Under the pieces are notes generated by a model. The model did no database searches, was not told where the DNA came from, and saw only the letters and a list, made by a program, of their open reading frames with translations. Source: a virus. Taken from it: 64,000 bases of DNA. The stretch lies in the IMG/VR virus record IMGVR_UViG_3300028800_000084, positions 7,286 to 71,285 of that record; one strand, given 5' to 3'. The position numbers were made by a program, and so were the translations under genes. Position 1 is the first letter of the stretch. Each line of letters opens with the position of its first letter. This document shows positions 1-52,635 of this stretch, piece after piece.

Positions 1-1740
1 GCGCTGCGCCACTTCCGCGTTGGCGTTGGTCGTTATTTCGTTGAGCTTGGTCTGCTCGTCTTGCTGGCGCTGCGCCTGTTGCTGGTTGTAAGTGTTAGTC
101 GCTGAACTGACCTGTTCGTTGCGGCTGGCGAGGTCATTCTGGACGGCCACGGCGTCGAGGTTGGCGGCGTCCTCTTGCAGCTTCTCCTGCGACTTGCTCT
201 GAATGTCCTGAAGTTTAGCCTGATAGTCCGACCACGCCTGTTGCGAGGCTTGCGCGGCGTCCTGCTGCGTCTTCAGGCGGTCGGCAGTCGCTTTCGTCTC
301 AATGTCGTCCACGGCGGCATCGAAGTCGGCGGTCTTCTGCTGGCGCGCCTGGTCGAACGTGTCCTGCGCTTGCTGCTGGCGGAGGTCGAAGTCGTCCTTC
401 TGCGTGGCTTGCTGTGCGTTGAAGGCGGCAACGCGGTCGGCGTCGGCGGCAAGGTACTTGGCGCGGTCATCGACCAACTGCTGCGTGGTCTTCAGGGCGT
501 CGTTTTCCGCCTCGCGTCTCTCTACCACTGGTAGAATGTTGTCGGACAGGTTGGTAATGTCGCCGTTCAGCACTTGCAGGCGGTCGCTGAATTTCTGGAA
601 GGTCGCCGCCGCGTCCGTCGAATATTGCGCGGCGTTCTTCAGCGTGGGCAACTGGCTCTCTATCGCCGCCGCTTCGTCCTTGTCGGCTTCAATCTTCTTC
701 TTAATAGTGTCCGACGACTCGCCTAGCGCCTGATCTGCCGCCACCTGGCTTTGTATCCATAGATCGGACGCCGCCGCCGTGTTCGCCGCTGCCGTGCGGG
801 CTGCTACGGCGCTGTCACCGAGCGCATTGTTGTAGCCTTCCAGTTCAGCCGCCGCCGCGTCGGAGCGGGCTTGAGCGTCCTGTAATTGCTTGCCGAGTTC
901 CTGGAAGCCCGGTTGCGTGGAGGCCAGAAGGAATTGGATACGAGCCGCCAGATCGCCCTGGTTGGTCTGTTGCGCAGCAAACGCGCCGCCTTCCGAACCG
1001 TTGATGCGGGCAATCTCAGCGTCAGCCGCCGCCTTGTCCTGCTGCGCTTTGGCGATGTTAGCCTGGATTTGCGGAGCGGTCTCGGTCGCGGCGGCGTTGA
1101 ACTCGGTCTTCAGGGCGTCAGCGGCAGTTTTCAGGTTGTTAGAGGCGTCCTGCGTCTCCTGAACGAACGCCTCGTAAGCAATCGTCAACACGCCGAGAGC
1201 GGCAATAACCGGCGTCAGCACCGCCAGCACTGCCCCGAACGAGCCGAACAGGGCGTCGCCGCCTGCTGCCAGCGTCCCGAACAGGCCGCCCGCGTTCTGC
1301 AAGTTCTCGCTCAGCGTGGGCAAAAGGTCACTGATGCGCTGCAAGCCCTGTTCGAGGTAGATGACCGCGCCAACGTCACGCAAGCCGGGTGCGCCACCAA
1401 CCGACCCGGCGACCGAGAAGGCGTGACCAATGCCGAACAGGGAGCTACCACCAGAAGAACCGCCTGTTGCACCGCCCTCGTCACCGGCGTCCGACGCGGC
1501 CTGAATAGCCTCTACCGTGTTTGCCAGTTCCGCGTTCATGGCTTGCAGGTTAGCGGTTGTGGCAGCGAAGCCCTCGTTCATAGTGGTGATGAACGCTTGC
1601 GCTGACTGCGTGGCTCCGGCGAACGCGTCGGTAATAGTTTCGGCTAGACCCTCAAAGCGGGAGGATGCAGACGAGATAAAGTCGTCAAGACTGCCGTCGC
1701 TCTCAACTCCTACGCTTAAAGGTTCCGGCTGGTCGCTCAT
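1..1740 (-). CDS. Tape measure protein (3' part runs off the window)
   Basis: Open frame from ATG at 1740 (MSDQPEPLSVGVESDG...) to the window edge. Ala/Gln-rich helical sequence with a hydrophobic segment (FGAVLAVLTPVIAALGVLTIAY), downstream of the tail chaperones. Missing from the ORF track because it has no stop in the window. Confidence 0.85.
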   Translation of the reverse strand, partial: MSDQPEPLSVGVESDGSLDDFISSASSRFEGLAETITDAFAGATQSAQAFITTMNEGFAATTANLQAMNAELANTVEAIQAASDAGDEGGATGGSSGGSSLFGIGHAFSVAGSVGGAPGLRDVGAVIYLEQGLQRISDLLPTLSENLQNAGGLFGTLAAGGDALFGSFGAVLAVLTPVIAALGVLTIAYEAFVQETQDASNNLKTAADALKTEFNAAATETAPQIQANIAKAQQDKAAADAEIARINGSEGGAFAAQQTNQGDLAARIQFLLASTQPGFQELGKQLQDAQARSDAAAAELEGYNNALGDSAVAARTAAANTAAASDLWIQSQVAADQALGESSDTIKKKIEADKDEAAAIESQLPTLKNAAQYSTDAAATFQKFSDRLQVLNGDITNLSDNILPVVERREAENDALKTTQQLVDDRAKYLAADADRVAAFNAQQATQKDDFDLRQQQAQDTFDQARQQKTADFDAAVDDIETKATADRLKTQQDAAQASQQAWSDYQAKLQDIQSKSQEKLQEDAANLDAVAVQNDLASRNEQVSSATNTYNQQQAQRQQDEQTKLNEITTNANAEVAQR

Positions 1741-1859
1741 TGCGCACCGCCTAGTTGTGCGGTATAATGGGCATTGTTGGCTAGGGAATAGCTACTCGAA
1801 AAGCGGTTAATCCTGCCGCCTGCCAACGACATTATAGGATTTAGCGAAAAGGATACGCT

Positions 1860-2786
1860 ATGCTGTATCTTCCCTTTCCCTTCAAACACTGCACGAAGTG
1901 TGGCGAATACTACCCACCCACGTTCGAATACTTTGCAAAAGACAAAATAAGTAGCGGAGGCCAACGGGCGCAATGCAAGTTTTGTTGCCGAGAAAAGACG
2001 CGCGAATGGCGGCAGAACAATCTTGAGAGGGCAAAGGAAAATGTGCGCCGTTATCGGGAACAGCACAAAGAAGAAGCGCGACAGCGTAGCGCCCAATGGC
2101 GACGCGACGACCCTGAGAAGGCACGGCAGTCCGAACGGCGTTACCGAGATTCTCATCCTGAAGTCCGTCGGGCGAACAGACTTCGTTGGGCAAAAAATAA
2201 TCCCGAAAAAGTGTACGCATCGAGTCAGCGTTGGCGTCATTCTCATAGCGATAGAGTTCGAGAAACGGAACGAAAGCGCAGACAGACTAACCCCGATGTG
2301 CATCAGCGAGCATCTAAACGATACAGAAACGCTCATGCAGAAATTCTGAAAGAAAGAGATCGACAACGCAGAGCCGCGAATATTGATACCGCACGAGAAA
2401 AAGGTAGGCAGAAAGAACACCGAAGGCGGGCAAAGATTAGAGCGTTGCCAGCGACGTTCACCGATGCAGATTGGGAGCGCGCACTTACTCATTTCCACGG
2501 CGGATGCGCCTATTGCGGCAATCCGCCTAGTTTGTTCGACGTGAATACGGTGCTTCAGCACGAACATCACATTCCCGTAAATCCCGACTACGAACTGAAA
2601 GGAGACAATCCTGGATACACAGCGGACAACATTGTTCCTGCTTGTCAGTCTTGCAACTTTAGCAAGGGTAACAAAAACCCTACGCAATGGGCAATTAAAC
2701 GCTTTGGCAAAAGACGCGGTGAGTCCATCTTGAAACGCATTCAGGAGTATTTCGAATGGGTTCGGCAACGGAAGGTCGAACACTAG
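1860..2786 (+). CDS. HNH homing-type endonuclease with N-terminal CxxC zinc finger, antisense to the late operon
   Basis: CTKC...CKFC at the N-terminus, Arg-rich helical middle, CAYCG...HEHHIP...NIVPACQSCNFSKGNK HNH motif. Confidence 0.9.
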   Translation: MLYLPFPFKHCTKCGEYYPPTFEYFAKDKISSGGQRAQCKFCCREKTREWRQNNLERAKENVRRYREQHKEEARQRSAQWRRDDPEKARQSERRYRDSHPEVRRANRLRWAKNNPEKVYASSQRWRHSHSDRVRETERKRRQTNPDVHQRASKRYRNAHAEILKERDRQRRAANIDTAREKGRQKEHRRRAKIRALPATFTDADWERALTHFHGGCAYCGNPPSLFDVNTVLQHEHHIPVNPDYELKGDNPGYTADNIVPACQSCNFSKGNKNPTQWAIKRFGKRRGESILKRIQEYFEWVRQRKVEH

Positions 2787-3304
2787 CTTTCTCCGTTCAA
2801 GGCCATGCGGACCGCCTGACGCCAATAGACTTCAAGTAGCTTAATAGCCTCCTCCCTGAGGAGGTCGCGGGCTACATCCATCTCGGCTCCCCATCCTGAC
2901 AGAGAAAACCCCAAGACTTGCCGAGGGCCATAAACGTATACCGCTTTCGGTTGAATATTCTTAATGGTCACAAGGTCGCCAATGAAGTAATCGGCCACGA
3001 GTACCCTGAACCCGTTCTCAATTGCGCCGCTTCTCAAGTAATGGGAACCGTCCGTTTCAACCAGTCCCTCCGGTATCATGACATGCAGGTAGTACCACTT
3101 ACTCTTTTCCGTCCCGAAAGCGAACGGGTACACCGCCGACGCAGGCGCAAGGTCGGGCATGAGAGCGTCTACGGCGTCCTGCAATTCATCACGGAACTCC
3201 GTCTGCAACAAGCGCCGAAAAATGTCACGCGCACGGCGCGGCGCTGACCGCCACGTGTCGATGCGTTCCTGGTTGACGGAAATCTTGAACTTGAAGTAAC
3301 TCAC
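2783..3304 (-). CDS. Putative neck/tail-completion protein
   Basis: Position between tail chaperones and tape measure; RSGAIENG...AVYVYG resembles HK97 gp10-like motifs. Confidence 0.45.
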   Translation of the reverse strand: MSYFKFKISVNQERIDTWRSAPRRARDIFRRLLQTEFRDELQDAVDALMPDLAPASAVYPFAFGTEKSKWYYLHVMIPEGLVETDGSHYLRSGAIENGFRVLVADYFIGDLVTIKNIQPKAVYVYGPRQVLGFSLSGWGAEMDVARDLLREEAIKLLEVYWRQAVRMALNGES

Positions 3305-3630
3305 TTCACTACCACGCTCCGCACGCGCCCCGACGAAAAGAGTGCGTCGAGTACCCGCTGGTTGCGGGCGCGAATGTACTGTTCCTCGTCGCCGTGCAGG
3401 ATGTCGTCAAGCGTGTACTTCGGCTTGCCGTCCGTCCAGCGTTCCAGTAACTTGTTCTCGGCCCATACGCCGAACGTCATGACAGCGCTATCGAAGGACA
3501 GGGCGGTGATGATGTCGGAGACACCGAGCAGATCACTCGCCCACTGCCGGACGTTCAGCGCCTCGCTTGGCCTTTGGTTCATGGTCTTTTGCAGCATCCA
3601 CAGGTGCCACAGACTTGACTTGTTGTTCAC
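3301..3630 (-). CDS. Tail assembly chaperone, C-terminal (probably frameshift-accessed) part
   Basis: Overlaps the end of the upstream chaperone in the +1 frame; G/GT-type arrangement before the tape measure. Confidence 0.6.
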   Translation of the reverse strand: MNNKSSLWHLWMLQKTMNQRPSEALNVRQWASDLLGVSDIITALSFDSAVMTFGVWAENKLLERWTDGKPKYTLDDILHGDEEQYIRARNQRVLDALFSSGRVRSVVVK

Positions 3631-4021
3631 GAAAGCGGATTAACGCTTGCGCAGGTTGACCGAACCAGCGATAGACGGCCAGCTTATCGGAGTAGCCAAG
3701 TTCGTCTATGCCAATTTCGTCGTCAGCCTGCGGAACGTCCACCACTTTCGGGCTAACTACCGCCCATTTTATCAGGTCGTCCAACCACGTTATCCACTCG
3801 CTCACCTTCTCCGGCGTCAGTTCTTTCGCCTCGGAGATGCTGCCGCCGTCGATGAGCATCTTGTTCACCGTGGCCGACAGGTAGTCAGGCACTTTGCCCG
3901 TCTTGAAAAAGAACGCCGCGTCCATCGGACGGATGAACACGGTGTCGCCGTACTCAGGCAGAACGAACTCGATACCCTTTGCCCGCTTCTCGCGCATCTG
4001 CTTCGCCGTTGTCGTGGTCAT
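3533..4021 (-). CDS. Tail assembly chaperone
   Basis: ATG at 4021 (MTTTTAKQMREK...) directly after the major tail stop; WAVVSPKVV...DEIGIDEL resembles tail chaperone motifs. Confidence 0.7.
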   Translation of the reverse strand: MTTTTAKQMREKRAKGIEFVLPEYGDTVFIRPMDAAFFFKTGKVPDYLSATVNKMLIDGGSISEAKELTPEKVSEWITWLDDLIKWAVVSPKVVDVPQADDEIGIDELGYSDKLAVYRWFGQPAQALIRFREQQVKSVAPVDAAKDHEPKAKRGAERPAVGE

Positions 4022-4023
4022 GG

Positions 4024-4563
4024 CTAGGTCGTCGGCGGAAAGGTAATCGGCGTCGTCAGCGTGGCCGTCGGTCGGCGGTACTCCTGATAGATGTAGCCGA
4101 ACGTCGGGTCTTGAATAGCCTTGCATGAGAACTGAGGAACCATGATTTTTCCGAACGTGTTCTTGTAGTTCCAGCCCTTCGTGACCTTGCAGTAGGGATA
4201 GAAGAACAACACGTCGCCAGTGGCGGGCAAGACCTGGGCAATCATGCCGAAATAGGGCAAGAGCGCGTTGTTGACCGGGAACACTGTGTCAGCCCCGCTT
4301 GTGGACGTGGAGATGCCGGTGAACACCGTGAGCAGGCTCGTGTCGAAGCCCGCCGTGTCAAGCGTCAGCGTAGCGCTGATGAGTTGTGTTTCCTCGTCAG
4401 TGATTTTACTGTTGCCTTGCGCCTCATCGTTGATGGCGTCTTGCGTAAATCCCATTTCCTTCGTGCTTTGCAGCGTGAAGGGCGTGCCGTAAGTGCCGCC
4501 GCCGAGCCATGCCGCGACAAGCACCTGTTGAACAGAGAATGGATACAATTGGGCTGTTGCCAC
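4024..4563 (-). CDS. Major tail (tube) protein
   Basis: 179 aa, beta-rich and Thr-rich; sits between the tail terminator and the chaperones. Confidence 0.75.
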   Translation of the reverse strand: MATAQLYPFSVQQVLVAAWLGGGTYGTPFTLQSTKEMGFTQDAINDEAQGNSKITDEETQLISATLTLDTAGFDTSLLTVFTGISTSTSGADTVFPVNNALLPYFGMIAQVLPATGDVLFFYPYCKVTKGWNYKNTFGKIMVPQFSCKAIQDPTFGYIYQEYRRPTATLTTPITFPPTT

Positions 4564-5040
4564 TTAAGAACTCCTTATCGCATACATCTTGCCGTTGAAA
4601 CTGTACAGGCAAGCGTCGGAGAGCAGTTTGTCGCGCAGGTTCTTCGTCGTGCGTCCCCAAAGAAATTGCAAGCCGCCATTGGCGGGGTCAATACGCGCCT
4701 GATTGAGTAATCCGTACATAATGACTTCCGCCGCCGCCAGCGTGTCGTAGCCCGCGTTGCCGTTGTCGTACAGACGACCGTAGATAGGCGTCTGCGTTGA
4801 GCGCACATTCATCCCGACCGCCTGTCCGTCCATCGCTTCCTCGGCATCCCAAAACACGCAGCACGGCTTCAGTTGGCCCGGACTACCGTCGGGCGGTTTG
4901 GTGTACGCCTGGGCCAGCGAGGTGGGGTTGATACCCTTGCGTCCTATTGCCGTGAAATCGTATATGCCACCGATGAGCAGGTCAGTGAGCGGCGCTGAAG
5001 CGTTGCAAACGTCCACGATAGCCTGCACGAAGTCGCTCAT
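4564..5040 (-). CDS. Putative tail terminator
   Basis: Synteny (immediately upstream of major tail); size and KPCCVF core. Confidence 0.6.
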   Translation of the reverse strand: MSDFVQAIVDVCNASAPLTDLLIGGIYDFTAIGRKGINPTSLAQAYTKPPDGSPGQLKPCCVFWDAEEAMDGQAVGMNVRSTQTPIYGRLYDNGNAGYDTLAAAEVIMYGLLNQARIDPANGGLQFLWGRTTKNLRDKLLSDACLYSFNGKMYAIRSS

Positions 5041-5444
5041 GGCTTTATCGTCAGTGTCGCCAGGAGTATTCCCGGCACGGCGTTGATGAAATCAGTTACT
5101 TCGTACAGCAGACCGCCATACGGGAACTGGTCGGCCCGCTGAACGTCGGTGTCGGGGATACCAGGGCACTGTTTAAATCCCACAAGCACGCCGTACTGAA
5201 CCGACAACTCGTTCATGAGGTTGTCGATTTGCTCCGACGCGCCGCGTATTGGGTGCAGTACTTCGAGCCGTACCACTTGCGGCGGCAGCACGATGACCTC
5301 GTTCGTCAGTGGGTCAGGGCGCGTGATGACGACAGTGAAGGGCCTCGCCCCGATGAGACGGGCCGTATCATAGCCGCGGATTTCAGTGTTGCCCCGCTGT
5401 GGGTTCGGCGCGAGTGTTCCTGCCCACAAGTCAGCCCGGTTCAA
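5037..5444 (-). CDS. Putative head-tail adaptor/closure protein
   Basis: Synteny; DTDVQRADQFPYGGLLYEV beta-strand motif typical of head-closure proteins. Confidence 0.6.
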   Translation of the reverse strand: MNRADLWAGTLAPNPQRGNTEIRGYDTARLIGARPFTVVITRPDPLTNEVIVLPPQVVRLEVLHPIRGASEQIDNLMNELSVQYGVLVGFKQCPGIPDTDVQRADQFPYGGLLYEVTDFINAVPGILLATLTIKP

Positions 5445-6571
5445 AAGTTCACCTCCGCAGGTGTCTTATGCCCGTTGGAGCGCAGCGCCGTCAGCGCTTG
5501 CTCGTTGCGGGCGCGATGCTCCGGCGTGTCGGTGTTAACGGGCGGCTCCGGCTGGTGCGGTGCGCCGAGGTGCTTGCCGAGGACAGCGATGAGCTTGTCG
5601 GCGGCGATTTTGTAGGTGTGATTGTCCCGGAGCCACTGTGCCGCCTTGAGCGCATTCGCTTTAGCCTCATCCTGGTTCAAGTACAGCCAGCGCATCTTTT
5701 CAACCACCTCATCCAACGACGGTTCAGCCCACAGGCCGCCGCTGCCCCGCATCCCGCTCTCGACCAGCGTAAAGCGCTCTATCGGGATAGCCCACTCATC
5801 GCAGTCATCGGCAGTTCCGCTGAAGCGCGTCACAACCGTTGGAATACCGCACGCTGCGGCCTCCCGCTGGCTCATCCCGTAGCCTTCGCAACGGGCCGGA
5901 CAGATATAGGCGTCGGTCTGGCTGTACACGTCGGCGATATGTTCCACATCCGCCCGCCACACGGTAAAACGGTCGTCGGGCGAGTAGGAAAAGTCCAGGT
6001 TGGGCAGGCTACCGGGACGACATTTGATGAGCAGCCGCACGTCTTTGTTGTCGTGCGGAAAGGCCTTGTAGAAGGCCGACCAGACTAGATCATATCCCTT
6101 GCGATTGCCGCGATCTGCCAGGGCCATGAACGTGTACGGCTGATTGTGCCGCTGACCGAGGATGGGTGTTTCTTCGGGATCGATGCCGCCCGGCACCACT
6201 TCGATAGGCACTTTAACGCCCGCGTCCTCGAACACTTCAATCAGCCACGGCGACGGCACGAGCAAAAGCGTTGATTTCTGGTTCACGCTGTCGGCCCATC
6301 CCGGCGGGAGTGTGCAGCTTTCGTGCATAGACCATGCCACCGACCGACCCGGCACATGGCGGAACTCATTGGGCGGTGAGATTTGCAGCGTGACGTGGCT
6401 GAAGTCCAGCCCTTGCGCCCGAAGATACCACGCTGGCTTGTCATCGAGAGTGTCCAATTCAAAGGGGTACACGCCGTGTCCGGCGCGGATAAGCTGCTGC
6501 GCAAAACCACGCGAGAAACGCCCGTATCCATCATAATATAGCCATTTGTACCCCCCGATATTCAGCTTCAT
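5441..6571 (-). CDS. Glycosyltransferase (GT-B, GT4-like) inside the head-tail module
   Basis: DGYGR N-terminus, RKGYD, PARCEGYGMSQREAAACGIPTVVT (EX7E signature). Confidence 0.9.
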   Translation of the reverse strand: MKLNIGGYKWLYYDGYGRFSRGFAQQLIRAGHGVYPFELDTLDDKPAWYLRAQGLDFSHVTLQISPPNEFRHVPGRSVAWSMHESCTLPPGWADSVNQKSTLLLVPSPWLIEVFEDAGVKVPIEVVPGGIDPEETPILGQRHNQPYTFMALADRGNRKGYDLVWSAFYKAFPHDNKDVRLLIKCRPGSLPNLDFSYSPDDRFTVWRADVEHIADVYSQTDAYICPARCEGYGMSQREAAACGIPTVVTRFSGTADDCDEWAIPIERFTLVESGMRGSGGLWAEPSLDEVVEKMRWLYLNQDEAKANALKAAQWLRDNHTYKIAADKLIAVLGKHLGAPHQPEPPVNTDTPEHRARNEQALTALRSNGHKTPAEVNF

Positions 6572-6684
6572 AGCGCTATAGCTCCCTGAACGTGGGCTTG
6601 AAGCGGCTTAATTATCCGCTTGACACCTGAGTTTCCTAGCTCAGTGCCCATTTCCTCGCTAGGTTGCAACTGTAGGAGGTTGCG

Positions 6685-6846
6685 ATGCTGTATATCCCCC
6701 ATCCCTTCCGTTATTGCTACAAGTGCCGACAGTACAAGCCCTACACTCAATTTCCTAAGAACAGAAGCAAGCAAGACCATCTGGCCTCGGAATGCCATGA
6801 GTGCAACAGGAAGCACGTTCGCAAGTGGGTCAAGATGCAAGGATAG
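6685..6846 (+). CDS. 53-aa zinc-finger mini-protein (HNH N-terminal module only, possibly a remnant)
   Basis: MLYIPHPFRYCYKCRQYKP...ECHECNRKHVRKW, similar to the N-terminus of 1860..2786. Strong SD AGGAGG upstream. Not in the ORF track. Confidence 0.65.
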   Translation: MLYIPHPFRYCYKCRQYKPYTQFPKNRSKQDHLASECHECNRKHVRKWVKMQG

Positions 6847-6848
6847 TC

Positions 6849-7562
6849 TCATTGCCCGCCCCATCCTGACCGCCGGAAGCGCGGGCCGTAGGGCGGCGCG
6901 TAGGTCAGCGACGTTGCCGGAACGCCGACTACCCACGGGATAGCCCGGACACGCGGCGGTTCGGGAACCATCGAGGCGAACAAGAACTGGTGGCTAGCGT
7001 TGGAAAGTACCTTGTAGTCCTCGACCATCTTTTCGATATTCGCTGTGATTTGCGATTTCTTTTCTGACGTTTGGCCTGCCGTATAGTCTGAGAAACGGCT
7101 AGCGTTGAATTGCAAGTCCAGTGCGTCGTAGTACAAACCGAGAAAGAAATTCGCAAGCGCCAAGTTATAGTTCGCGTTTAGCTCATCGTCCGTGAAAGCT
7201 GTCATACCACCTTGCGTTACCTCAAGGATTGCAATTGCAATTCCCGTACCAGTCAAGCCGGATGCGTTAACGGTGAGCATTGACTGTGCCGCATGTTGAA
7301 GGTTTCCCAAGAAGGACACGACATAGGGTGAGTTATTGTTGACTTGAACATTTCCCAAACCGATAGTCGAAAGCGCCGCTAGTGCATTTTGCAGCACGTT
7401 ACTTCCGGCATTGTAAGACAACGCAGTGGTAGTTTGTCCGTTAAAGGTAGCTGTCCAGGTTCCTCCCGTAGCGTTGGAGATTAGGATTGACTGAACTTCA
7501 GACGTACCTTGATCGGCTATTTTTTGGCGTGCTAAAGCCAATTGACTCGCAGTCATTGACAT
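6849..7562 (-). CDS. Putative head-tail connector with inserted beta-domain
   Basis: First same-strand gene after the major capsid; FTDDEL...DYTAGQTSEKKSQ connector-like motif. Contains an EVQSI..ATGGTWTATFNGQTT..LSYNA module. Start inferred from SD GGAG. Confidence 0.6.
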   Translation of the reverse strand: MSMTASQLALARQKIADQGTSEVQSILISNATGGTWTATFNGQTTTALSYNAGSNVLQNALAALSTIGLGNVQVNNNSPYVVSFLGNLQHAAQSMLTVNASGLTGTGIAIAILEVTQGGMTAFTDDELNANYNLALANFFLGLYYDALDLQFNASRFSDYTAGQTSEKKSQITANIEKMVEDYKVLSNASHQFLFASMVPEPPRVRAIPWVVGVPATSLTYAPPYGPRFRRSGWGGQ

Positions 7563-7684
7563 AGCGCTATAGCTCCTTCTGGGGTATACTGTGAGGATAT
7601 ATCGGCTAGGTTCGCTACCGAAAAGTGGGACACATCCGACCACCTGCCGATTGCATCTCGGATGTCAGCACAAGGATGAGTGCT

Positions 7685-8449
7685 ATGGATACCTCGACTA
7701 AGCGCTGTTCCGTTTGCAGCAATGAATTTCCGGCAACAACCGAATATTTCTACAAGAAAGGTGGACGCACTTCGCTGTTTGCGTGGTGCAAGAGATGTCA
7801 CCTCAATCGCATTGCGCCGACAACTAAAGCATGGAACGTAGCGCACCCTGAACAATGCAAAATGCATCAGGAAAGATACCAGCACGGACATACACGTGCG
7901 AAGCATACTTACAGACCCACGAGTGAATGTCCGATAGAAGAACAAGAGAGACGGCGCGCAGCGGGTCGGACTCGGGATAGACGCCGCAGAGAACGGAACA
8001 GAGAAAAGGCCAAAGAACGGTCTAGGACATCTTTCGCCCTTTGGGTAAAACGGCATCCAGACCAAAGTCGAGCTAGGCGTCATAAGCGAGAAGCTCAAAA
8101 ACGCAATCTCCCTGCCACGTTCACCGCTTTGGATTGGAAGCACGCCAAGCGGTTCTTTGCCATTAACGGCGTTGAGTGTTGCGCCTATTGCGGTCGTCCC
8201 ATCGGCTTGTGGCATACGCTTGCTCAAGACCATTTCATCCCGCTGAGCAAAGGCGGAGCATACACTGCCGACAACATTATCCCGGCGTGTCACGGGTTCG
8301 ACGGGTGCAACAACTCCAAATCCAACCGCGATCCAGTTGATTGGCTCACGGAACGCTTTGGCGCGCGCAAGGCAAAAGCCATCCTGAACCGCGTCCAGGA
8401 TTACTTCGCCTTCGTTACCAATCGAGATAGTCACGACGACCTCAGCTAA
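7685..8449 (+). CDS. HNH endonuclease, antisense to the late operon (paralog of 1860..2786)
   Basis: CSVC...CKRC, LPATFT..DW, CAYCG...DHFIPLSKGG...NIIPAC...CNNSKSNR. ATG at 7685 follows AAGGA. Confidence 0.9.
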   Translation: MDTSTKRCSVCSNEFPATTEYFYKKGGRTSLFAWCKRCHLNRIAPTTKAWNVAHPEQCKMHQERYQHGHTRAKHTYRPTSECPIEEQERRRAAGRTRDRRRRERNREKAKERSRTSFALWVKRHPDQSRARRHKREAQKRNLPATFTALDWKHAKRFFAINGVECCAYCGRPIGLWHTLAQDHFIPLSKGGAYTADNIIPACHGFDGCNNSKSNRDPVDWLTERFGARKAKAILNRVQDYFAFVTNRDSHDDLS

Positions 8450-9620
8450 TGGTCGGGTTGGAGTAAGTTCCTGCGTTACCGGCTGAGAACTCGAAAGCTG
8501 CGCCCGCAAAACGAGACGAGCCGCAGCTAACGCCGAATTCCAACTCGAGATCTACTTCGGAAAGCGGGAACGTGGTGTTCCAGTCGGGTTTTTCCAGCAC
8601 CTTCACGCCCAAGCCGAACGACGGACGGTAGTTAACGGCAAGCGCGTTCTGCACGTTGCCCTGTGCACCGGGGCGGAACATCGTACCGTAGCCTTTCGGG
8701 ATTCGATAAGTCGCGTACAGCGAGATTTCGCCGTAACCGGAGTTGTAGACGCCGATGAAGCGCCCGCCGCTGGTCGGCGTGTAGCCGAACTGCCCTTCGA
8801 TGAAGTACTGGTTGCCAGTCGTCTGACCGCCTCGGTCAACCTGCGTGCTGCTGATGCGGATGGGCCGCTCGTAGTTGGTCAGGGCCAGGATGGTCTGCAC
8901 GTCAAACTCCGACACATACGCCTTGTACGTGCCGCCCAGACCGTGCTGCGAAATGTTCTGCGCAGTCAGGTCGAGCGCGTCGGCGTAGGTGTAGTTCGCC
9001 CCGGTGTTGGGGTTGTTGACCGTGCTATCGTAGGCGGTGTAGTGCTGGTGAGAAGCGGTGAACACCTGCCCGTTCCACTGCGGCGGCGCATACTGAAGCG
9101 TGCTTGACCCGTCGCACCAGCCCACATCGTAACCGGGTGTGGAACCGAGCGCGTTCTCGGTGTTGTTGAGCATTCGGGTCAGGAGCGCCTTGTCCCACAG
9201 GTTGCGCAACATCTGGTTGCCAGCGCGGACTTCGGCCAGGATGTACTCCGGGTCGGCGTCCTCCATCGCTCGCCAGTCGCCGCCGATGGCGTAGCTGTAC
9301 ACCTTGCGGTCAATCATGTGACCGACGATGTTGGCGCGTATCAGTTGCGGACGAGCGCCACCGGACACCACTTCCATATCGGGGATAGTGCCGCCGTTGG
9401 GATACACGATGTCAATCTTGGTGGTCGGGTAGAACGCGTCGCCCCACACCGTCACCATTTCTTCGTTGAAGTCCTGTGCGCCAGCGCCAATCATGGCGCG
9501 TAGCTGCTCATAGGTGATATTGCCCTTCAGTTGGACGAGGGCAAGGCGTCCGCCGTCCACACCAGCCGGGATAGGCTGATTGGCGGCGAGAACTCCGTGA
9601 AAAGCCTGTGCTAATGCCAT
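8442..9620 (-). CDS. Major capsid protein
   Basis: 392 aa, downstream of the protease/scaffold and decoration genes; strong SD AAGGAG. Call rests mainly on synteny and size. Confidence 0.75.
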   Translation of the reverse strand: MALAQAFHGVLAANQPIPAGVDGGRLALVQLKGNITYEQLRAMIGAGAQDFNEEMVTVWGDAFYPTTKIDIVYPNGGTIPDMEVVSGGARPQLIRANIVGHMIDRKVYSYAIGGDWRAMEDADPEYILAEVRAGNQMLRNLWDKALLTRMLNNTENALGSTPGYDVGWCDGSSTLQYAPPQWNGQVFTASHQHYTAYDSTVNNPNTGANYTYADALDLTAQNISQHGLGGTYKAYVSEFDVQTILALTNYERPIRISSTQVDRGGQTTGNQYFIEGQFGYTPTSGGRFIGVYNSGYGEISLYATYRIPKGYGTMFRPGAQGNVQNALAVNYRPSFGLGVKVLEKPDWNTTFPLSEVDLELEFGVSCGSSRFAGAAFEFSAGNAGTYSNPTIS

Positions 9621-28900: not shown

Positions 28901-30164
28901 CAAATCATTACCGACCTTGACCAGCGCACGCCGAACCACAGCATCGGCCCGACCGGGCGCGTCCGATGGGACGGCTCCCTCGCCTGCGGACACACAGCCC
29001 TGGTCAAGCGCAACGTCGGGGGGATAATCGAAGGCCGTACCCGCATACCTGCTGTGAGCCGGACGGCTACGCTGAATATCTCGAAGAACAGAGGATGCCA
29101 TGACCCGCGCCTATCTTGACGCCCTGACGCGCCCGCAACTGACCGAGATGGTCATGGACATTCAGTCCGCCCGTGACGCCGACCGTGCCTATGCTCGCCG
29201 CATCGTGGCCGAACTTCGGGCGGACGTGGCGCGGCTTGAGCGCGAGAATCTGGACCTGTACCGGCGGCTGGACAAGCCAGCGACCAGGCGGCGACAGAAA
29301 GTAGTTAGCTATAGCGAGGAGGTGGATTTCGAGACGCTCAGCCCAGACGAACAAATCGCCTGGATCACCCTGCACCCGGAGCAGGTATCTGCTCACACGA
29401 CGTAACCGACCTATATCACCGAAAGGACTGAACCCGTGTACGACTTTAACAAAGCAGGCCATGAGTACGGCATGACCGATTACCCGAACAGCGAAGATGC
29501 CTGGGATCATTTCATCGCCTATACGCCGGAAGCCTATGAGGACTATCGGCAGGCGGAACCGGACGACCAGCGCCAAGCCAAAGAAGATTTCGGATGGGGC
29601 TGGCTCGAAACTTACGAGCCGCCTGCACCAGACGAGGGCTAGACCGCACTATACCGGGCCGCGCATGGTCACAACGCGGAGAAGGAACACAACCATGATA
29701 ACCTTTATCGCCCACGAGAAGAACGCACTTCGCAGAGCCGCACTTATCCACTGCCGATTCTTCTTTGTAAAATCGCGGCGGTGGATCGAAGTCCGCGACC
29801 GGCTTATCCAGTCCGTTCCGTTGCCGGAAGCGACTGGCGACGACCGCCACGAACATTGGAACGCACGCGAGGATGCGTTCTGGCGCGAAGTGGAGAGCAT
29901 TGAGGGTAAGCTATGAAGCCTGACACGACCGCCGTCTACTCGCTCACCGCCGACCGCCTTGAGCCGTGCCACATCGTGCCGGCGCCGTTCCCGTCGGTCT
30001 ACTTGACCGATGCGGGCGAGTACCTTGTCGAGTGCCAGTACCACATCTTTCGCGTGCCGTCGGAAGCGCTGGCGCTTTCCGTGTGCCGCGCCTACGCCCG
30101 TGGCAACGAGGAGGCGTATGCTGCCTACGTCGTGCGCTTCGGCGTGGTCGAGCCGGAGGAATAA
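25933..30164 (+). other. Cluster of small hypothetical early genes (e.g. 25933..26076, 26142..26396, 26467..26640, 26641..26856, 27199..27654, 27731..28066, 28072..28368, 29100..29405, 29436..29642, 29913..30164)
   Basis: Short co-oriented ORFs, many with GGA..ACC-ATG type SDs, separated by long hairpins and ending at the terminator at 30182. Confidence 0.7.
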
Positions 30165-30181
30165 CCAACCATCCTATATAC

Positions 30182-30227
30182 AACGAGCCGCCGTGATCCT
30201 GCTATGGGATCACGGCGGCTCGTTTTT
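30182..30227 (+). terminator. Strong intrinsic terminator
   Basis: AACGAGCCGCCGTGATCC-loop-GGATCACGGCGGCTCGTT followed by TTT. Confidence 0.9.
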
Positions 30228-51792: not shown

Positions 51793-52635
51793 TCACGTTC
51801 CCTTCTTTCGTTCCGCGCTCGGCTGCGCTACGTAGGCGGCCTCTGTTGGGCATAGCCCCTTCTTTCTGAGTTTGTCGAAAAACTCATCAACCTGTTTCAT
51901 GATAGTTGTCGCGGTGCCCTCTCCGCATTTCTCGCACAGCCATTCGTAAGCGTCTTCGTCATTTTTGCTGCTGCTGCAAGCTCGGCACATGGGAACGATG
52001 TTTGTTGGGATTGTGCCAGGGCAATCCGCATCTTGAATGGAAATCCAATGGTCTTTTACGAGCGGCTTCTCCTTTCTGCATACCACACAGCGATACCCAA
52101 AATAAGCACAAGCGTATAACCAGTCGTCTTTTGTCAAAGTGTGAGGTAGCTCGGCTTTGCGCCTGTACCTTTGCAACATTGCGGCGTTTCGTATTTCTGG
52201 GTGCGTACGGCGCCACTCCGCAACCATTTTCGTATTGCACGCATGACATCTTGAAGGAAACCACTTCCCGTCCCTGTAGTACCCGACAAAGAATTCTTTA
52301 GTTCTCGGAAATACACCCTTGCAGTCGGGACACTTTTTAAGCCCCGCTTGCCGAAGCTCGTGCGCCTCCTTTAGTTTCGGGTGAGCGTCAAGGTATCGTT
52401 CTCTATGCGCCCTTTGGTGTCTGGCGATAGATTCTGGTTTCGGAGGATGGTTTTTGTAACGTTCTCTCGAATATGCGCGTCCTTTCTCGGTGTTAGCCTC
52501 TGCGCGTCTACATTCATTACAGTCTGGACGCAGGCCGTATTTGCCGTGCTTGTTGGGCGTAAAATACCCCCTGGTTGCCGGTAGCTCTCGGTGGCATTTC
52601 GTACAGACTTTTGTCAGGATGTCAGCGCTTATCAT
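51793..52635 (-). CDS. HNH endonuclease (third paralog, co-oriented with its operon)
   Basis: Two zinc fingers, LPHTLT..DW, CVVC...DHWI...NIVPMCRACSSSK. Confidence 0.85.
   Translation of the reverse strand: MISADILTKVCTKCHRELPATRGYFTPNKHGKYGLRPDCNECRRAEANTEKGRAYSRERYKNHPPKPESIARHQRAHRERYLDAHPKLKEAHELRQAGLKKCPDCKGVFPRTKEFFVGYYRDGKWFPSRCHACNTKMVAEWRRTHPEIRNAAMLQRYRRKAELPHTLTKDDWLYACAYFGYRCVVCRKEKPLVKDHWISIQDADCPGTIPTNIVPMCRACSSSKNDEDAYEWLCEKCGEGTATTIMKQVDEFFDKLRKKGLCPTEAAYVAQPSAERKKGT

Follow-up and report, generated by a model that had tools for sequence, protein, structure and literature searches.

Divergent int-alpA-type RNA leaders before two antisense HNH endonuclease genes of a virus offer one hairpin loop two alternative targets

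Two genes encoding HNH endonucleases, together with the RNA leaders that precede them, were analyzed in a 64-kb window, the whole stretch of DNA studied here, which corresponds to bases 7286-71285 of the 71,285-nt IMG/VR virus record IMGVR_UViG_3300028800_000084 (estimated to be 63% complete). HNH gene 1 (1860-2786, + strand; 308 aa) starts at ATG 1860 and is antisense to its neighbors, and HNH gene 2 (7685-8449, + strand; 254 aa) lies between two minus-strand genes. The leaders occupy 1774-1860 and 7599-7687, are both on the plus strand, and contain the same three-way junction. Their alignment to the Rfam covariance model identifies them as divergent members of the int-alpA class (RF02996), and we propose that they probably act in cis on translation of the HNH genes.

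The elements of copy 1, all on the plus strand as are those of copy 2, begin with a -10-like box read from the sequence (TATAAT, 1763-1768) that ends 5 nt before the first helix, P1 (1774-1781 with 1822-1829). P1 encloses P2 (1784-1797), J2/3 (GAAAA, 1798-1802), and P3 (1803-1806 with 1816-1819), whose loop spans 1807-1815. The tail that follows holds site 1, the putative decoy, in which TAGGATT (1835-1841) complements the P3 loop with a duplex energy of -6.5 kcal/mol. Next is a fourth hairpin, P4, with arms TAGCG (1842-1846) and CGCTA (1856-1860), the 3' arm finishing on the A of the ATG at 1860. Its loop, AAAAGGATA (1847-1855), contains the Shine-Dalgarno (SD) sequence and site 2 (AGGAT, 1850-1854), for which the duplex with the P3 loop was calculated at -5.9 kcal/mol. 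Copy 2 follows the same plan, with a -10-like box read from the sequence (TATACT, 7585-7590), P1 (7601-7606 with 7646-7651), P2 (7609-7619), J2/3 (GAAAA, 7620-7624), and P3 (7625-7628 with 7640-7643; loop 7629-7639). Site 1 of this copy, TCGGATGT (7658-7665), complements the P3 loop at -11.5 kcal/mol. The P4 arms AGCAC (7667-7671) and GTGCT (7680-7684) adjoin the ATG at 7685, and the P4 loop AAGGATGA (7672-7679) contains the SD and site 2 (GGATG, 7674-7678; P3-loop duplex, -7.3 kcal/mol). In both copies, P4 was also found in the single-sequence minimum free energy (MFE) fold.

Much of this arrangement had been read from the two copies by a first-pass annotation, and the strings and -10 boxes that it quoted are present. 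The compensatory changes it described hold in the outer stem (GTTGGC 1776-1781/GCCAAC 1822-1827 in copy 1 versus ATCGGC 7601-7606/GCCGAT 7646-7651 in copy 2) and in the inner stem (GCGG 1803-1806/CCGC 1816-1819 versus GTGG 7625-7628/CCAC 7640-7643). The same is true of its pairing between the inner loop and a downstream strand, AATCCT (1809-1814) with AGGATT (1836-1841) in copy 1 and ACATCCGA (7632-7639) with TCGGATGT in copy 2, and of its suggestion that the loop could instead pair with the SD region, which reads AAGGAT at 1849-1854 and at 7672-7677. P4, with the SD copy in its loop, was absent from that reading, and its arms add a further compensatory difference between the copies. The loop, site 1, site 2, and the P4 arms thus differ between the two window copies and match inside each.

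A core pattern (CTAG-N5-20-CGAAAAGYGG-N5-16-CCRCCTG) was used to search for related elements. In the window, it matched the two leaders only, and there were 0 matches in each of 100 dinucleotide shuffles. When IMG/VR viral contigs were scanned, at least 117 stretches matched, giving at least 119 instances including the window's two; 111 of these had enough flanking sequence and 83 were non-redundant. All family counts reported here (n = 83, 65, 62, 59, 56, and 49) are among the matches listed. The junction alignment comprised 62 sequences, picked by distinct P3 loop and P2, after 3 of 65 representatives with odd tails were dropped. In it, 93.3% of cells in P1, P2, and P3 were paired, compared with 69.8% in shuffled alignments, and the covariation score was 0.496 versus 0.120 for shuffles, 0 of 500 of which reached the observed value. 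Sliding the junction structure out of register gave covariation of at most 0.099, and RNAalifold, unprompted, returned the same three helices. P1 positions 3-7 each displayed every one of the four Watson-Crick pair types, and P2 positions 1-2 displayed GC, CG, AU, and UA. The variable P3 pair was CG in 47 sequences, UA in 14, and UG in 1, and never C-A, though the pattern permitted C-A; the other P3 pairs are uninformative because they are fixed by the search pattern. The near-invariant letters of the junction were C-UA-G, C-GAAAA-G, and C-CU-G, and the junction was invariant among phages of very different base composition. The larger alignment upholds the covarying three-way junction that had been proposed from two copies.

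The pseudoknot and P4 were judged by permutation tests, since their partner columns are out of register in the MAFFT alignment. Site 1 was defined as a complement of at least 5 nt to the P3 loop located 6-26 nt after the core, and site 2 as such a complement ending 0-13 nt before the start codon; as a control, the P3 loops were dealt out among the loci. Site 1 was present in 77 of 83 loci (loop-permutation mean, 24; maximum, 35), site 2 in 72 (mean, 34.5; maximum, 43), and both in 68 (mean, 17.2; maximum, 27). With one locus retained per distinct loop (n = 59), the counts were 54 for site 1, 49 for site 2, and 45 for both. Both loop complements recur in the larger sample far above the permutation controls. 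The two sites draw on overlapping letters of the P3 loop, and the two pairings are therefore mutually exclusive. Their strengths are nearly equal, with mean duplex energies of -8.75 kcal/mol for site 1 and -8.35 kcal/mol for site 2; of 49 loci compared, 29 had the stronger pairing at site 1 and 17 at site 2, with 3 ties. Site 2 lies within the loop of P4, whose 3' arm adjoins the start codon. A P4 stem of at least 5 bp was found in 50 of 65 representatives (shuffled tails: mean, 24.2; maximum, 35), and in 48 of 62 a stretch of 5 nt or more in the P4 loop complemented the P3 loop. Site 1 adjoins the P4 5' arm, with a gap of -1 to +2 nt, in 33 of 56.

The position of the element relative to genes is also constrained. 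An SD-preceded ATG opening a reading frame (ORF) of at least 45 aa was located 31-60 nt past the core in 73 of 83 loci, and the same layout was found at 7.7% of random same-strand positions and in 2 of 80 cases on the opposite strand. A TANNNT ending 3-12 nt before P1 was found in 32 of 65 representatives versus 8.9% of random positions, and a match of at least 5/6 to TATAAT before P1 in 19 of 65 versus 2.5%. T-runs after P1 were rare (5 of 65). The fixed gene distance, the upstream -10-like boxes, and the rarity of T-runs together form the layout of a 5' leader rather than that of a free-standing small RNA.

The first-pass annotation had advised an Rfam check, since known motifs might already cover the element. 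That check gave a full-length match to RF02996 for both copies, just under threshold. Copy 1 (match at 1774-1846, the three-way junction plus tail) aligned to the model from position 1 to 71 of 71 with a score of 32.0 bits (E = 6.5e-5 when 401 nt were searched), and copy 2 (match at 7599-7665) aligned over the same 1-71 of 71 with 33.3 bits (E = 3e-5). In a search of the whole window, E-values were 0.01 and 0.0048, respectively, and no further copy was detected. A default whole-window Rfam scan at gathering scores returned 0 matches because both scores are below 35.8. The conserved blocks of RF02996 (CUAG, CGAAAAGCGG, and CCGCCUG) are all present in both window copies, and the consensus blocks across int-alpA leaders including those of the window are CUAG, CGAAAAGYGG, and CCRCCUG. 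Seventeen of 20 pattern-found viral loci that were scanned exceeded the RF02996 threshold, at 38-60 bits, and above-threshold members were also seen in Enterobacter phage Tyrion, at 44 bits, in Salmonella phage BIS08P22 (19309-19391), at 38.5 bits, and in an E. coli prophage, at 45.1 bits. The window copies align column by column with these members. Because of these full-model matches, and because pattern-found loci pass the threshold, the window leaders are, by sequence comparison, divergent representatives of a class that is real and common. The RNA class itself is not new; what is new is sub-threshold members in a new gene context.

The window copies share with RF02996 the P1/P2/P3 junction, the conserved blocks, and a tail that carries the loop complement; the last positions of the model are unpaired in its structure line, and the window tails complement the P3 loop. 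They differ from it in the bigger P2 loop of copy 1 and the short P1 of copy 2. The Rfam model ends at site 1, and P4, site 2, and the SD copy therefore lie outside it. The name int-alpA presumably derives from the neighborhood of integrase and alpA genes, and the family has, we assume, been catalogued as an orphan since 2017. In the 71,285-nt record (the estimated 63% of the genome), no match to an integrase (PF00589) or AlpA (PF05930) gene was obtained. The source of the family we take to be Weinberg et al. 2017 (NAR 45:10811). The main text of that paper (PMC5737381), as distinct from its supplement, contains neither 'alpA' nor 'HNH'. Literature searches by the name 'int-alpA' returned a predicted-sRNA table entry without follow-up, or the phrase used for gene order, and no mention of 'RF02996' by name was found. 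Likewise, we found no literature on the function of int-alpA, the second complement, or P4, with the proviso that the 2017 supplement may bear on these points.

The first-pass annotation had further described a mobile unit of promoter, RNA, and HNH gene, and the HNH part of this did not survive the comparison. The 83 proteins encoded downstream of the leaders formed 53 unrelated protein clusters, and HNH-type proteins accounted for about 16 of the 83, an estimate from clusters plus a check of ten proteins. Pfam domains among them were DUF1376 (6), HNH (5), HNH_3 (4), Dam (3), and HNH_5 (2), and those that occurred once included Rha, NUMOD3, NUMOD4, a TnpB-like domain, and a portal protein. PHROG matches included replication-initiation O-like proteins (9), primosomal proteins (6-7), DnaD-like loaders (4), and several HNH families. 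Among the proteins other than HNH types were replication initiators, Dam methylases, and proteins with DUF1376, along with numerous small proteins of unknown function. In enterobacterial phages and prophages, the leader of approximately 98 nt was alone conserved (87-93% identity) and its flanks differed. With viral locus L009 (12900-13290) as the query, E. coli genomes contained the leader in 44 of 5,426 cases, and it also occurred in eight phage records, from Enterobacter, Salmonella, Edwardsiella, Pantoea, and Klebsiella phages, where it sits between the lysis genes and terminase, before small genes of unknown function. The retention of the leader before differing downstream genes suggests that module exchange breaks at the start codon. 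Because the downstream clusters are unrelated and the leader alone is conserved, the leader is, as judged from its contexts, a portable module that is not HNH-specific.

Some observations on individual members of the family were made along the way. Viral contig L007 carries two above-threshold int-alpA copies (8870-8937 and 9211-9278) about 340 nt apart, directly after a run of tRNA genes, and also a match to the type II hammerhead ribozyme (4576-4645, minus strand; 49.1 bits). At L075, a RAGATH-18 RNA (3144-3205, minus strand; 76.9 bits) occupies the same locus as an int-alpA leader. The 83 downstream proteins include one with a Cas12f1-like TNB (TnpB-type) domain. In a plain listing of P2 loops, self-complementary 4- to 6-mers were common, with TAGCT in 16 of 65, and further palindromic words were GGCC, TGATCA, TTGCAA, GCCGGC, CTTAAG, and GGATCC. 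In the window, the P2 loop of copy 1 contains the self-complementary TAGCTA (1789-1794), and that of copy 2 (TCGCT) contains none.

The product of HNH gene 1 matched Pfam HNH with an E-value of 3e-4 at 21.3 bits (cut-off, 21.4) and PHROG 1035, 'endonuclease VII', with an E-value of 3.4e-20, and HNH PHROGs were matched too. HNH gene 2, which also matched HNH PHROGs, has two minus-strand neighbors, a tail-protein-like gene (6852-7562) and a major head protein gene (8445-9620), and the major tail and major head families of PHROG were matched by these neighbors. HNH proteins 1 and 2 share 41% identity over the C-terminal 148 aa (E = 2e-30). A third HNH paralog (51793-52635, minus strand; 25% identity to gene 1, E = 2e-19) is co-oriented with its operon, and its ATG overlaps the end of the upstream co-oriented ORF. 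The first-pass annotation had stated that this paralog lacks the leader, and neither the core pattern nor the Rfam E-value scan detected one there. Contigs of four DNA sequencing runs contained no joints and no indels over 1000-9600, and some of them span leader-HNH junctions (e.g., 1677-2106 and 7408-7955). A search for relatives without the HNH cassettes by way of the flanking proteins (2786-3304 and 6852-7562, both minus strand) confirmed none.

A 53-aa ORF (6685-6846, + strand), antisense among minus-strand genes, is 36% identical to HNH gene 1 over 50 aa (E = 3e-9) and opens with MLY.P.PF..C.KC, like gene 1; by this similarity it is an N-terminal remnant or a paralog of that gene. Its leader (region 6620-6846, + strand) has no three-way junction and consists of a hairpin with a C/T-rich loop (CCTAGC/GCTAGG, 6635-6663) followed by a second hairpin (GCAAC/GTTGC, 6666-6683), which resembles P4 in having the SD within its loop and in adjoining the ATG. 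Elsewhere in the window, a glycosyltransferase-like gene (5444-6571, minus strand; PHROG 2170, E = 3.3e-24) lies within the structural gene block, and region 30028-30226 (+ strand), which ends with a terminator-like hairpin, matched the Burkholderia small RNA BcKCsr2 weakly and probably by chance, at 22.5 bits (E = 0.74) where the gathering score is 40.

The junction fold with its covariation, its fixed position before an ORF, the two loop complements, P4, and the near-equal pairing strengths were all computed here, and we infer that the pairings form in the RNA and control translation; the default state and what shifts the balance belong to the same proposal. Transcription of each antisense HNH gene would begin at a start of its own, and the leader, about 90-100 nt long, would have the P3 loop as its functional center. 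Pairing of this loop with site 1, just 3' of P1, would form a pseudoknot in which site 1 serves as a decoy and the SD is free, and pairing with site 2 in the P4 loop would form a loop-loop kissing contact that covers the ribosome binding site. Since the SD would be covered in the one state and free in the other, we think it probable, from sequence and energy comparisons, that the leader works in cis on the HNH genes, as a translational brake or a two-state switch that would restrain a potentially harmful nuclease. The balance could be shifted by the order of cotranscriptional folding, temperature, Mg2+, a ligand, or a protein bound to the junction. Site 1 is transcribed first, and one option would be a kinetic pulse, in which the leader is open initially and closed at equilibrium. 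We count in favor of this reading that the third paralog, which is co-oriented and would be translated from its operon, has no leader.

Several results weigh against a cis-acting brake or switch. A sigma-70 consensus scan called neither window promoter because the -35 hexamers are poor, and only the -10 boxes were seen. Both P3-loop pairings cross P1, and neither could therefore be folded with the programs used. Single-sequence folding of the window leaders was no better than that of shuffles (z = -0.65 and -0.67), and their MFE structures recovered P1 and P4 and missed P2 and P3; for helices as short as P2 and P3, single-sequence thermodynamic folding is uninformative. P4 stems of at least 4 bp were present in 62 of 65 representatives versus a shuffled mean of 43.9, a weak and noisy control. 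As a test for the RNA strand, the counts of G-U and A-C (24 versus 19) did not single it out. Because collection of the loci relied on a strict core pattern, and because many of them are mutually related, the counts among the 83 loci are not independent events. Both window scores fall under the RF02996 gathering score, and Rfam assigns the family the type 'Gene; sRNA', whereas the data here favor a cis leader. There were no RNA runs among the sequencing runs that carry the sequence. Finally, the analysis yielded no candidate for what would move the P3 loop between its sites, and in a brake without switching a decoy would have no obvious purpose.

Other explanations were weighed against the same observations. 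The Rfam type raises the alternative of a trans-acting small RNA, a separate transcript whose exposed, antisense-like P3 loop would pair with other messages, and AAGGAT occurs in the SD regions of both window genes, so that some cross-pairing would be possible. We nevertheless regard this as quite unlikely, given that the motif is fixed 31-60 nt before a same-strand ORF start in 73 of 83 loci, that each P3 loop matches its own downstream SD region, that only 5 of 65 representatives have a T-run after P1, and that 7- and 8-mers complementary to the loops are few elsewhere in the window, counted irrespective of gene starts. Less easily set aside, though still unlikely in our estimate, is a constitutive 5' structural cap that protects against 5'-end-dependent decay, or a fixed translation damper, in either case without switching. 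P1 begins a few nucleotides from the predicted transcript start in both copies, roughly half of the family has a -10-like box immediately before P1, and the analysis gave no candidate trigger. A plain stabilizer, however, needs no loop that covaries with two downstream sites, and it leaves unexplained both the near-isoenergetic pairings and the invariance of the junction across very different base compositions.

The conservation of the approximately 98-nt leader alone between differing flanks in enterobacterial phages and prophages, the frequently palindromic P2 loops, and the indecisive G-U versus A-C count would also fit an element that acts as DNA, such as a recombination joint, a homing site, or a cruciform. 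This is very improbable in view of the strand-specific, fixed-distance coupling to start codons (73 of 83 versus 2 of 80 on the opposite strand) and of the SD itself being part of the complementarity. We attach the least credence to a self-cleaving ribozyme. The first-pass annotation had entertained a ribozyme-like fold, and a small three-way junction with conserved letters does superficially resemble a hammerhead, but the leaders match no ribozyme family of Rfam, among them hammerhead, twister, pistol, hatchet, hairpin, and HDV-like, at E-values up to 10. The sole ribozyme row, Hairpin (E = 6.7), is on the minus strand inside an HNH gene. The junction strands here are 2, 5, and 2 nt, and the conserved strands of a hammerhead core are longer.

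A functional precedent, by analogy, for a cis-acting brake comes from T-even phages. According to Edgell, Gibb and Belfort 2010 (PMC2988022), hairpins hide the ribosome binding site of T4 I-TevI, I-TevII, I-TevIII, and segB and of Aeh1 mobE. As described there, leader RNA hides the ribosome binding site of a homing-endonuclease gene and limits its translation, and an RNA structure adjoins the cassette's own promoter, as proposed for the window. The T-even structures are simple hairpins relieved via a late promoter inside the hairpin, whereas the window leaders have a three-way junction with an anti-SD loop and a decoy copy of the target, and their predicted promoter is upstream of the entire fold; there is no sequence relationship between the two.

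A second comparison is with translational riboswitches. Those such as preQ1-III and SAM-II hide the SD with an aptamer loop or pseudoknot strand. The int-alpA leaders resemble them in a conserved junction or pseudoknot core, an SD that would pair with the structured domain, and two exclusive states, and differ from them in that their gene context suggests no ligand and their downstream genes are functionally diverse. No match to Rfam riboswitch families was obtained in the window at E-values up to 1, and a coherent metabolic gene context was not found, the 53 clusters being of unrelated function. The invariance of the junction across base compositions may leave room for a bound ligand or factor. 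A more speculative extension, which we consider doubtful, is that int-alpA is a widespread phage RNA sensor whose junction binds a conserved cellular ligand or factor and so sets the choice between the decoy (on) and the SD hairpin (off). If so, the infected cell's state would govern how strongly nuclease, replication-initiator, and accessory genes are expressed, and an orphan 'sRNA' would turn out to be a translational riboswitch of a new class, whose expression platform is based on a decoy.

These results extend the int-alpA class beyond what the Rfam threshold detects and place it ahead of homing-endonuclease genes that stand free within structural operons. Genuine members carry an extension beyond the Rfam model, namely, a second copy of the target in a hairpin that presents the SD at the start codon. 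Tractable hosts are at hand, since members above the threshold are found in a P22-like phage of Salmonella, in an Enterobacter phage, and in prophages of E. coli. The findings also suggest why phages tolerate many selfish nuclease genes, since each may bring with it a portable promoter-plus-brake module.

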